From: a virus
Reading direction: 5' to 3' (one strand)
Length of the DNA: 64,000 bases
IMG/VR virus record: IMGVR_UViG_3300011268_000517
Location: 22,558 to 86,557 of that record
The position numbers and the translations under genes are program-made. Below the pieces are notes generated by a model, which worked only from the letters and a program-made list of their open reading frames with translations, was not told the origin of the DNA and did not search any database. Shown here piece by piece: positions 22,069 through 27,510 of this stretch. Each line of letters begins with the position of its first letter. Position 1 is the stretch's first letter.

Positions 22069-22981
22069 AGTCTTCCTTAGCGATCTTCTGGAAGTAAGAC
22101 AACACATCATCATCGTCATCATTGCTAACTGCTTTAGGAGCAGGAGCAGGTTTTGACTTGATAGATGGTGCTGGCGCAGCTGCAGGTTCGTCGTCTTCGT
22201 CTACCATTTGAGCAGCAGACTTGGCAACATAGCTGTCACCAGACAAAACATCATTCAGCTTCTTCTTCAGTTCATCGTAAGACTTGAAGTTTTTACGATC
22301 CAAGAATTCAGACAATTTGTGTTGAGCATTTGCAATACTCAACAGACGATCTTCATCGTCAGTGATAACAGAAGGTTCCATGAACGCAGATTCGTCATAG
22401 TTTGCATAACCATCCTTCTTGCGCATACGCAGCTTGAAGTTAGCACCTTCCCAGAAATCAAAAACGTTCACTGGCTTTTCGTCTTCGAAAGTAGGACGAG
22501 CCTTGTCCATAATCTTGTCAAAAATCTTCTTACCGAATTTGAACAAGAATACTTTACCTTCGTTCTCAGGATGCTTGGGATCAGAAACAACTAGAATGTT
22601 GCAGATGAACGCCAGCTTACGCTTTTGTTTACGTGCAATTTCTTTGTTGGCTTCAGAACCAGAGTTCCACAGCTGAGTGTTCAGTTCACCGACAGGGTCA
22701 TTCTCACCAAGAGTGGTTAGAGAATTCTCGATGTACCATTTACCAGTTGGACCTTGGAAACCGTGCGAAAAGATACGAACCCATGGGAGTTCATCACCTT
22801 CAACACGTGGGAGGAAACGAATCGTTGCAGTGCCGTTGCCAGCCTTGTCACCTTCAAGACGCCACATGCGGTCGTCGTTGTATGACTTAGATTCGGTTTG
22901 TGGATTTGCGATTTTCTCGAATGCGTTAGCGATGCTACCGAAGTCAGAGTTGCGCATTTTACGGAGTGTTTGGATATCCAT
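22067..22981 (-). CDS. gp32: Single-stranded DNA-binding protein gp32
   Basis: DK.GNG.A.IRFLP, HGFQGPTGKWYIENS.TT, GKVFLFKFGKKIFDKI, acidic C-terminal tail. Confidence 0.96.
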   Translation of the reverse strand: MDIQTLRKMRNSDFGSIANAFEKIANPQTESKSYNDDRMWRLEGDKAGNGTATIRFLPRVEGDELPWVRIFSHGFQGPTGKWYIENSLTTLGENDPVGELNTQLWNSGSEANKEIARKQKRKLAFICNILVVSDPKHPENEGKVFLFKFGKKIFDKIMDKARPTFEDEKPVNVFDFWEGANFKLRMRKKDGYANYDESAFMEPSVITDDEDRLLSIANAQHKLSEFLDRKNFKSYDELKKKLNDVLSGDSYVAKSAAQMVDEDDEPAAAPAPSIKSKPAPAPKAVSNDDDDDVLSYFQKIAKED

Positions 22982-25236: not shown

Positions 25237-25491
25237 TTAACGCTTCTGGTTCACAGCGTAAGCGATACAGAGATTCGAGGAATTACTCTCGTAAGCGCAT
25301 TTAACTGCAATCGGGTCAATACCCTTTACAATAGCACTTTCAATATTTCTCTCCATTGACTTAATAGAAAGTTGATTATGGTATGTAATAGCACCAACAA
25401 TTGCAAGCAGAGAAATAGTCACCGAAATAATAAAAATGTTTTCAGATTTCAAAATAAATTCCTTTAGTTTAGGCAAGATCTTTAACATCAT
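25237..25491 (-). CDS. Hypothetical membrane protein
   Basis: Single hydrophobic helix. Confidence 0.5.
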   Translation of the reverse strand: MMLKILPKLKEFILKSENIFIISVTISLLAIVGAITYHNQLSIKSMERNIESAIVKGIDPIAVKCAYESNSSNLCIAYAVNQKR

Positions 25492-26026
25492 CGCACAATC
25501 CTAATTTTTTAGCTTCTTGTGGGCTCAACCAAACATCCTGTGGTGGAAGCAGAATTTCTCTAATCTTAGCCTCAGAAAGACCAGTAGATTTTTTATAATG
25601 CTGGATCATTTTCTTGGTAGTAAGATCAAACTCTTTCACTGTAGCAAAAAGTTCGTGTTCTTTACCAATCGCACCCCAAGAATATTGGTGTGATAGGATA
25701 GAAGTATTTGGTGTAAGAATACGCATACCTTTATCGCCAGCAATGAAAATCATTAGACCAGCAGAAGCAATTTGCCCAAGACCGATTGTACGAATTGGGA
25801 TAGCTGATCCACGCATAACGTCAATCAAAGCGAACGCTGCATTTAAATCACCACCTGGAGATGTGATAATAAGATTGAGCATCTCTGGTCGTTCTTCAGC
25901 GAAGTTAGCTTCGAAAATCCATTCAACAGCAGTTTTAACTGACTGTAAACTAATTTCCTCCATTAACAGCATGAATGAATGGCGTGAAGATTCCTCTTTC
26001 AATTGGAGGTTTAGTTTGTTCATCAT
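25469..26026 (-). CDS. clpP: ClpP-family serine protease subunit
   Basis: ITSPGG, IRTIGLGQIASAG (catalytic Ser), ILSHQ (catalytic His). Confidence 0.9.
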   Translation of the reverse strand: MMNKLNLQLKEESSRHSFMLLMEEISLQSVKTAVEWIFEANFAEERPEMLNLIITSPGGDLNAAFALIDVMRGSAIPIRTIGLGQIASAGLMIFIAGDKGMRILTPNTSILSHQYSWGAIGKEHELFATVKEFDLTTKKMIQHYKKSTGLSEAKIREILLPPQDVWLSPQEAKKLGLCDDVKDLA

Positions 26027-26942: not shown

Positions 26943-27146
26943 TTATTTAGCTTCTGGTTTTTTCTTCGGAGTAGGCTTGGTAGCAGAAGGTGGAGCTTTA
27001 GGTGCAGCTTCCTTCTTTGGTTCAGCCTTCTTAGCTGTGTCTTTCTTTGCAGCAGCTGCCATCTTCTCAGGAGTAGGTTGTTTTGCTGCTTGAGCCATAA
27101 CGCCAGTAGCAACAGTCAATGCTAAAATTGCGATAATTGATTTCAT
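26943..27146 (-). CDS. Secreted low-complexity Ala/Lys/Pro-rich peptide
   Basis: Signal peptide MKSIIAILALTVATGVMA followed by an A/K/P-rich tail. Confidence 0.6.
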   Translation of the reverse strand: MKSIIAILALTVATGVMAQAAKQPTPEKMAAAAKKDTAKKAEPKKEAAPKAPPSATKPTPKKKPEAK

Positions 27147-27164: not shown

Positions 27165-27480
27165 AGTGGTGGTTATTCTGTTACGAGGAAACCACCGAAA
27201 CCCTAAGCAGTGTTTAGGCTGCTAATGCGAACAGTTCGTCGTTTGCGTTTACGTTTTTTGCTTCTTCGACCGAGTTTCCCCAATCCTACGGGTTTCACAT
27301 TCCCGTGCTGTCCACTCTGTTACTCTTTGCCCTGTCGAAACCATGGCATCCCCATCAAAAGTATATTGACGACATTTCTGGTCCAATTCCATGGTGTGGG
27401 ACCAATATACTTTTGGTGGAGATGGGGGGAGTCGAACCCCCGTCCAGAACACTTTTCTCTTTGCTTCATACAGCAATAAT
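27165..27480 (-). ncRNA. ssrA: Permuted (two-piece) tmRNA, tag ANDELFALAA*
   Basis: On minus strand: T-arm and acceptor GGGGGTTCGACTCCCCCCATCTCCACCA ending at 27414, then an intervening hairpin, then 5' piece GGGGATGCCATGGTTTCGAC from 27353, then tag ORF 27246-27214; acceptor stem has G3.U70. Outer ends approximate. Confidence 0.92.
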
Positions 27481-27510
27481 CATCTATTTAACAATTATAT
27501 CTTATTATCA

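Follow-up and report, generated by a model that had tools for sequence, protein, structure and literature searches.

The question raised by this locus is whether a short region of viral DNA encodes a circularly permuted (two-piece) tmRNA that belongs to the phage itself and, if so, to which lineage of tmRNAs it should be assigned. The DNA analyzed, referred to here as the window, is a stretch of 64,000 nt (positions 22,558–86,557 of the IMG/VR virus record IMGVR_UViG_3300011268_000517), and all coordinates refer to this stretch unless otherwise stated. The record as a whole is a 95-kb IMG/VR virus contig, about 58% complete (CheckV). It carries 32 tRNA genes identified by ARAGORN and encodes (i) gp32 (PF08804, 152 bits), (ii) a gp5-type baseplate hub/tail lysozyme, (iii) an exonuclease, (iv) an endolysin and (v) PhoH. 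The gp32 and gp5 hub genes, together with the others, identify the virus as a T4-like myophage of roughly 160 kb. Metagenomes from fresh water, rivers and estuaries, sampled in several studies, contain its DNA. No close cultured relative was found: gp5 reached at most 45% identity, over about a quarter of its length, and the only megablast match was that of a gp32 fragment to cyanophages.

An original prediction, made from the nucleotide sequence, had proposed that a phage-encoded permuted tmRNA is located here and had named ARAGORN and the Rfam models as a means of checking it. Both identified a complete permuted tmRNA gene at about 27487–27166 on the minus strand of this uncultured T4-like freshwater phage. 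ARAGORN called it as “tmRNA*” (permuted) with the tag ANDELFALAA, the same peptide that is obtained by direct reading of the frame and that had been predicted. Searches with Rfam release 15 gave full-length matches to RF04321 (tmRNA_permuted; 131.4 bits, cut-off 47 bits, E 1.8e-25, model positions 1–213) and to RF01850 (beta_tmRNA; 114.4 bits, cut-off 84 bits, E 4.4e-34). Since both values exceed the respective gathering scores, the match is far beyond chance. The alpha_tmRNA model gave 72.6 bits (cut-off 50) and the cyano_tmRNA model 51.2 bits, which is below its cut-off of 70, with the match confined to the tRNA-like part; the higher score obtained with RF01850 therefore places the gene within the beta type. 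The terminal GC-rich hairpin of the RF01850 model is absent here, and the corresponding model positions are deleted in the alignment. This hairpin is a terminator-like element of chromosomal genes and lies outside the functional core. No riboswitch was detected in the window by Rfam.

Together with the phage context, these results support the presence of a phage-encoded, circularly permuted tmRNA gene of the betaproteobacterial type, an ordinary and well-supported case of a catalogued class. We consider it very probable that this is a functional permuted beta-type ssrA gene of an uncultured T4-like freshwater myophage. Its parts are listed in Table 1.

Table 1. Predicted parts of the permuted tmRNA gene and of its upstream region (window coordinates; paired strands are given 5′ to 3′ on the minus strand)
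Feature	Position	Strand	Details	Basis
Candidate sigma-70-like promoter	27522–27494	minus	−35 TTGCTT 27522–27517; 17-nt spacer; −10 TATAAT 27499–27494	read from sequence; putative function
Acceptor piece	27414–27487	minus	P2 3′ strands, T-arm, acceptor 3′ strand, discriminator A, encoded CCA	ARAGORN, Rfam, sequence
P2a	27334–27328 with 27451–27445	minus	CAGGGCA with UGUUCUG	
P2b	27310–27306 with 27475–27471	minus	CAGCA with UGCUG	
T-arm	27441–27437 with 27429–27425	minus	GGGGG with CCCCC, loop UUCGACU	
Acceptor 3′ strand	27424–27418	minus	CAUCUCC; discriminator A (A73) 27417; CCA 27416–27414	
Intervening segment	27354–27413	minus	60 nt; hairpin, closing stem abuts CCA; then GAU before G1	
Coding piece	27166–27353	minus	acceptor 5′ strand, P2 5′ strands, two hairpins, tag frame, 3′ hairpin; 3′ end approximate	
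Acceptor 5′ strand	27353–27347	minus	GGGGAUG	
Two predicted hairpins	27268–27306	minus	in place of pseudoknot 1	fold
Hairpin A	27306–27302 with 27292–27288	minus	ACGGG with CCCGU	
Hairpin B	27285–27279 with 27274–27268	minus	GAUUGGG with CUCGGUC; 7 bp, GAAA tetraloop	
Tag frame	27214–27246	minus	resume codon GCA 27246–27244; stop TAA 27216–27214; ANDELFALAA	ARAGORN and sequence
3′ hairpin	27168–27196	minus	GGUGGUU 27196–27190 with AACCACC 27174–27168	fold

The order of the two halves agrees with the original prediction, according to which the acceptor half lies ahead of the 5′ half on the minus strand; both of its coordinates (CCA end at 27414, G1 at 27353) are correct, and the length of 60 nt that it gave for the intervening segment (27413–27354) is exact. 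A perfect 12-bp stem, also predicted, is formed by 27414–27403 with 27368–27357; its first pair takes the terminal A of CCA and 11 pairs lie wholly within the spacer. The tRNA-like domain is full, with a 7-bp acceptor stem, a T-arm with a GGUUCGAnUCC-type loop, discriminator A and CCA, and it contains the expected G3.U70 pair (27351 with 27420). The conserved core of the acceptor piece covers 27475–27414 and opens with UGCUGUA; the 5′ end of this piece (27487) is a putative one, placed from the candidate promoter.

Within the coding piece, the pseudoknot-1 region appears to be replaced or expanded by the two predicted hairpins. Reading of the alignment indicated that hairpin B is an insertion in this region, which occurs only in the subgroup of the window (L015, L030, L019 and L027), with compensatory changes. 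The coding piece had been expected to end soon after the tag, and it is indeed compact: about 50 nt and one hairpin separate the stop codon from the ribosome-binding site of the next gene. The 3′ hairpin has a 15-nt loop (UCCUCGUAACAGAAU, 27175–27189) that is conserved among the copies, with a stem that covaries, and the Rfam beta_tmRNA model contains a corresponding 3′ hairpin and a related loop. A second type of this loop, UCCUUAUUACCCAAU, accompanies GAGG (not AGGG) just past the stop codon; the pairing of these two changes could reflect a pseudoknot.

Selection on the RNA structure was examined by comparison with other viral copies. One pattern scan of IMG/VR identified 42 further viral contigs with the same form of the gene, several of them 146–164 kb long. 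ARAGORN called a permuted tmRNA in nearly all 42 contigs; most of the 43 other viral copies have a tag of the form ANDxxxALAA, which is kept across divergent copies; the resume codon, the complete canonical tag frame and the stop codon are likewise conserved across divergent phage copies. Covariation was assessed with RNAalifold on an alignment of 29 phage copies. The G3.U70 pair is present in all 29. Both sides have changed in 13 copies at pair 5:68 of the acceptor stem, in 17 copies at one pair of the T-arm and in 12–13 copies at two pairs of P2a. The closing stem of the spacer shows compensatory changes at six pairs (alignment columns 65–73 with 117–125).

An alignment-free comparison of 31 unique pairs of spacer arms gave a similar picture: a mean of 10.4 out of 12 positions can pair, versus 7.9 for arms combined from different sequences. 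The 31 arm pairs include 28 distinct 5′ arms, and GAU precedes G1 in most of them. The 3′ hairpin retains 6–8 consecutive pairs in roughly 16 unique phage sequences that carry the loop motif, although their stems differ widely. Single-sequence folding energies are unremarkable (z-scores from −1.3 to −1.8); these scores are uninformative, and the structural case therefore stands on covariation.

The 60-nt spacer contains no reading frame conserved between the window and contig L023. The ATG at 27392 opens a frame of 47 codons in the window, which stops after about 16 codons in L023, a contig with the same spacer type. The spacer of the window (27354–27413) is nearly identical to that of the L023 gene (at L023:227–542), although the two tmRNA bodies fall into different subclades, so that recombination seems to transfer spacers from one tmRNA gene to another. 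Another spacer type is common to contigs L040, L019, L051, L013, L016, L026 and L027.

Inspection of the region upstream of the gene revealed the candidate promoter given in Table 1. A consensus promoter scan did not list the TTGCTT/TATAAT pair, since its −35 box matches the consensus at only three of six positions; a weaker site was listed instead. Close relatives contain a −35 box of the TTGAC(A/G/T) or TTGCTT type and TATAAT just 5′ of the conserved UUGCUGUA start. The two boxes are clear in many relatives, while in others a tRNA gene is located directly upstream instead. The Rfam beta_tmRNA model has a promoter-like 5′ region of its own, which aligns at the putative promoter.

No terminator was found after the coding piece, and the next gene begins about 20 nt further on (start ATG 27146). 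Since there is no terminator and this gene adjoins, the 3′ end of the coding piece needs a cleavage. The adjoining gene (26943–27146, minus strand) has 67 codons and a good ribosome-binding site, and it starts 20 nt past the last tmRNA hairpin. The predicted product begins like a signal peptide, is rich in Lys, Ala and Pro at its tail, and gave no match in Pfam or PHROGs. It is probably co-transcribed with the tmRNA.

These features suggest the following course of expression. The sigma-70-like promoter would drive the synthesis of one precursor, composed of the acceptor piece, the 60-nt hairpin spacer and the coding piece. By analogy with the Caulobacter two-piece tmRNA and with tRNA processing, host RNase P may cut 5′ of G1 (27353), behind the conserved GAU, and the spacer remnant left on the acceptor piece may be trimmed to the encoded CCA at 27414 (for maturation in Caulobacter, see Keiler et al. 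2000, as cited in passages of PMC9004378 and PMC11915505). The two RNAs would then be held together by the 7-bp acceptor stem and the P2 helices, whose pairing is shown by covariation. According to the established G3.U70 identity rule for alanine, this pair and A73 should make the molecule a substrate of host alanyl-tRNA synthetase.

No smpB gene was found in the 95-kb record, a result that, at about 58% completeness, says nothing about the phage as a whole; the RNA would need the SmpB of the host. With host SmpB and EF-Tu it would enter ribosomes stalled on broken messages; translation would resume at GCA and add ANDELFALAA, a canonical degradation tag ending in ALAA. The phage would be likely to benefit by keeping ribosomes free and by recycling incomplete proteins during degradation of host RNA, beside its 32 tRNA genes. 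A role in ribosome rescue can reasonably be inferred.

Contigs at least 99% alike to parts of both pieces were detected in four freshwater metatranscriptome runs from three studies, a result that speaks to presence only. In the RNA contigs of one study, a sequencing adapter abuts 27414, i.e. the CCA end. The spacer (27359–27412) and both flanks are nearly or wholly uncovered in the four runs. These gaps were considered as evidence of processing, but were not counted because (i) the data are contigs, many of them from relatives (90–95% alike), (ii) the spacer and its flanks vary from relative to relative and (iii) an exact stop is seen in one study only. Contig ends at 27479 were likewise rejected as marking the 5′ end of the gene, as they fall at the same place as the edge of conservation. 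Two RNA runs from a single study contain contigs that end against the adapter at 27341, which is 12 nt inside the coding piece and not at G1; reverse transcription may have stopped here, the RNA may have been cleaved, or the end may have arisen in contig assembly.

The statement in the original prediction that phage tmRNAs are mostly described as one-piece was overstated. Two-piece molecules make up 53 of 133 unique phage tmRNAs, 50 of these 53 come from aquatic phages, and the two-piece form has already been reported as common among the tmRNAs of such phages (Buchholz et al. 2022, PMC9004378); genes of Stenotrophomonas phages and the 42 IMG/VR contigs described above are further examples. The 2025 tmRNA database (PMC11915505), which is the source of the RF04321 model, contains 79 phage sequences. 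Phage two-piece tmRNAs are already catalogued, and the novelty of the gene had been overestimated.

A two-piece tmRNA has been described in the T4-like Methylophilales phage Melnitz (Buchholz et al. 2022, PMC9004378). As in Melnitz and the pelagimyophages, the window gene is a complete permuted ssrA of a T4-like myophage behind an early-type promoter, and the same functional proposals apply (PMC9004378). In contrast to the window gene, which is of the beta type, that of Melnitz is of the alphaproteobacterial type and is accompanied by a glutamine riboswitch (PMC9004378). Melnitz-type phages are only distantly related to the phage studied here (about 45% identity in gp5, across a quarter of the protein).

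Homologous permuted tmRNAs were identified by blastn in GenBank records of Stenotrophomonas T4-like phages (Menderavirus, e.g. Yut2, Mendera and IME-SM1; DLP_6). The match extends from the T-arm across the spacer into the coding piece. ARAGORN calls these genes tmRNA*, and they match both Rfam models. They resemble the window gene in having an encoded CCA, a stem-closed spacer and GAU before G1, but differ from it in sequence (identity of about 71%) and in their tags (VAANDDSYTVRIAA and ANDDSFAPMAIAA), and they branch apart from the subclade of the window. Among phages with one-piece tmRNAs, e.g. the cluster C mycobacteriophages (one of which is mentioned in PMC13014143), the latter are similar to the phage studied here as lytic myophages with about 30 tRNA genes and one tmRNA; unlike the window gene, one-piece phage tmRNAs have the standard gene order and lack a spacer and two-piece maturation.

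The chromosomal counterpart is the betaproteobacterial two-piece tmRNA of Rhodocyclales (Dechloromonas/Azonexus, Thauera and Azoarcus), described by Sharkady and Williams (2004), as cited in a passage of PMC9004378. The phage gene shares with it (i) the order of acceptor piece, spacer and coding piece, (ii) a compact coding piece, (iii) a P2 start GACAGGG (GACGnGG in standard tmRNAs of the same order), (iv) a 3′ hairpin with a related conserved loop and (v) a tag of the form ANDE.FA.AA. It differs in that CCA is encoded, whereas the chromosomal genes have ACC followed by C or T, in the length of the spacer (60 nt versus 24–45 nt), and, with respect to both Rhodocyclales and RF01850, in the extra hairpin of the PK1 region and the missing terminal GC-rich hairpin.

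The distribution of permuted genes in bacteria was examined by a scan with a broader pattern, using one genome per bacterial species. Among the matches listed, most were from Rhodocyclales (Azonexus/Dechloromonas, Thauera, Azoarcus, Accumulibacter and Propionivibrio), with the tags ANDERFALAA or ANDEQFAIAA. Also among the matches listed were CCA-encoding copies in Stenotrophomonas, in Herbaspirillum and other Oxalobacteraceae and in Gallionellaceae, as well as copies in Comamonadaceae and Sphaerotilaceae that have ACC followed by C or G, like those of Rhodocyclales. In each of three CCA-encoding genomes that were checked, a complete tmRNA of the standard form is present as well (226, 191 and 213 bits); the permuted gene is therefore a second copy in those three genomes. 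No standard tmRNA above the cut-off was found in the one Rhodocyclales genome checked (Azonexus). A strong permuted match was obtained in only 4 of 151 sampled genomes of the same GTDB order.

Both forms of tmRNA are present in several bacterial genomes (loci L118, L120, L175, L186 and L213, the last at G001:C56:23500-35500). In a Gallionellaceae genome, a permuted CCA-encoding tmRNA (ANDENFAMAA) lies some 300 nt downstream of a standard one (ANDEKYALAA) and on the same strand, and genomes of Stenotrophomonas and Herbaspirillum likewise contain the standard and permuted forms. Many of the second copies have non-canonical tag ends, e.g. ...AYGT or ...LLVA. The idea that the second permuted copies of Stenotrophomonas and Gallionellaceae are prophage-borne was not supported: PHROGs and Pfam analysis showed ordinary cellular neighbours (type II secretion ATPase, aldose epimerase, EarP, RlmJ and histidine kinase).

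For a rooted tree, 82 permuted sequences were combined with 29 standard tmRNAs of the same order, the latter rearranged to the permuted order of parts (acceptor part plus first 200 nt). The tree is based on about 260 columns and on pattern-selected sequences, and its outgroup comes from a single order; Rhodocyclales were subsampled to 24, and six very long viral rows were omitted. All permuted copies form one clade (100/99) with respect to the standard tmRNAs. The Rhodocyclales copies constitute a clade of their own (99/93), with the window outside it. Viral copies and the second copies of Lysobacteraceae, Oxalobacteraceae and Gallionellaceae form a moderate group (80/80), outside which the copies of Comamonadaceae and Sphaerotilaceae stand as a separate starred pair. 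The rows nearest to the window are viral (L030, L015 and L050; 91% identity). An unrooted tree of all 155 rows agrees with the rooted one.

The original prediction had held that the gene was acquired from, or independently permuted in, a lineage of the betaproteobacterial type. The assignment to this type stands. The single clade of permuted copies and the features common to the phage and Rhodocyclales genes speak against an independent permutation in the phage, and the sequence comparison suggests that the beta-type rearrangement arose only once. The position of the window among viral copies and outside the Rhodocyclales clade also argues against recent capture from a sampled host lineage. 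On the sequences compared, the gene belongs to a virus-carried sublineage of the beta type, set apart from that of Rhodocyclales by its encoded CCA and its longer, covarying spacer hairpin. The beta-like tag is at most a weak hint as to the host and, since the phage copies are not nested in a chromosomal lineage, a phage tmRNA of the beta type is a poor host indicator.

A more far-reaching reading may also be formulated. The distinct virus-carried sublineage with CCA and a long spacer hairpin would occur in T4-like freshwater phages and in Stenotrophomonas phages, with relatives as second genes of bacteria that retain a standard tmRNA; the permuted form would have spread, or arisen, via phages, the Rhodocyclales gene would be a captured phage gene, and the tmRNA may work with a phage ClpP. 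Taken as a whole, we regard this scenario as speculative and unlikely. In Supplementary Table 2 of PMC11915505, which is without a virus row, a few “Permuted (beta)” entries appear under each of Bacteroidota, Bacillota, Actinomycetota, Patescibacteria and several archaeal phyla, and these entries may be phage contigs binned into metagenome-assembled genomes. A Bacteroidota MAG (L114) is also among the matches of our genome scan.

The order phoH, endolysin, exonuclease, tmRNA, orf92 and cell-wall hydrolase recurs in related viral contigs. A ClpP homologue (25469–26026, minus strand; PF00574, 103.8 bits) is encoded on the strand of the tmRNA, about 1.1 kb further downstream, and its Ser, His and Asp residues align with the catalytic triad of solved ClpP. 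Head maturation in T4-like phages is carried out by a family other than ClpP, so the phage ClpP is an auxiliary gene.

This arrangement bears on the question of what the tmRNA is kept for. It might be maintained mainly as half of a phage proteolysis module, in which phage ClpP and a host unfoldase degrade tagged proteins and the amino acids are recycled, with rescue being secondary. Such an explanation draws on the nearby ClpP with its aligned triad, on the recurrence of the tmRNA–ClpP neighbourhood in seven related viral contigs (L013, L016, L017, L019, L030, L047 and L050) and on the tag ending in ALAA, a signal that is recognised by bacterial ClpXP. However, the seven contigs are from related phages, in which a shared neighbourhood may be inherited synteny, the more distant tmRNA-bearing contigs do not have ClpP nearby, and no ClpX/ClpA-type AAA+ unfoldase was found in the 95-kb record, although at about 58% completeness this negative says nothing about the phage as a whole. 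We therefore consider the explanation rather improbable, and treat a functional link between the tmRNA and ClpP as a hypothesis only. It also seems very improbable that the RNA is a decoy or inhibitor that binds host SmpB or ribosomes and so blocks host trans-translation. There is a precedent in the CDS-less tmRNA-like RNA of mycobacteriophage DS6A, a reported blocker of host trans-translation (cited in a passage of PMC11915505); SmpB is missing from the sequenced part of the phage, and the mRNA-like part of the RNA is reduced, without PK2–PK4 and with PK1 unclear. Yet the resume codon, tag frame and stop are conserved in divergent copies, although a pure decoy would have no need of them, and chromosomal beta-type tmRNAs are similarly compact, even though in Azonexus, the one Rhodocyclales genome checked, such a molecule is the only tmRNA above the cut-off.

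The remaining alternative is that the gene is not the phage's own, being a recent host fragment or an assembly chimera, or that the region in fact encodes a protein. Fragments of host ssrA frequently serve as attachment sites in temperate phages, and two open frames overlap the gene (27249–27476 on the minus strand, 75 codons; 27210–27479 on the plus strand, 89 codons). Against a host fragment or chimera, the gene is complete and not a 3′ fragment, its synteny is conserved in many viral contigs, it groups with viral copies outside the Rhodocyclales clade, and the stretch is present in DNA runs of several freshwater and river studies. Against a protein gene, the RNA models score with E-values of 1e-25 to 1e-34, and L023, with the same spacer type, does not retain the 75-codon frame of the minus strand. 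This alternative is thus almost certainly wrong, and a working phage tmRNA with a role in ribosome rescue is retained as the preferred reading.

The locus adds a freshwater example to the large lytic phages with big tRNA sets that bring their own ribosome-rescue RNA. What is new is modest: (i) the beta-type phage copies form a group of their own, in which CCA is encoded and the spacer hairpin conserved, (ii) all beta-type permuted genes appear to trace to one rearrangement and (iii) the tmRNA lies in a conserved neighbourhood together with a ClpP homologue that has intact catalytic residues. The understanding of trans-translation is unchanged.

With respect to annotation, a genuine gene for a stable RNA is present here that escapes gene calling based on ORFs. 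Some GenBank records of Stenotrophomonas T4-like phages annotate the gene as tmRNA; in others (accession nos. MZ042490, MN098328, KR560069, NC_048755, KU682439 and OL702939) the homologous permuted tmRNA is unannotated or labelled tRNA-OTHER.
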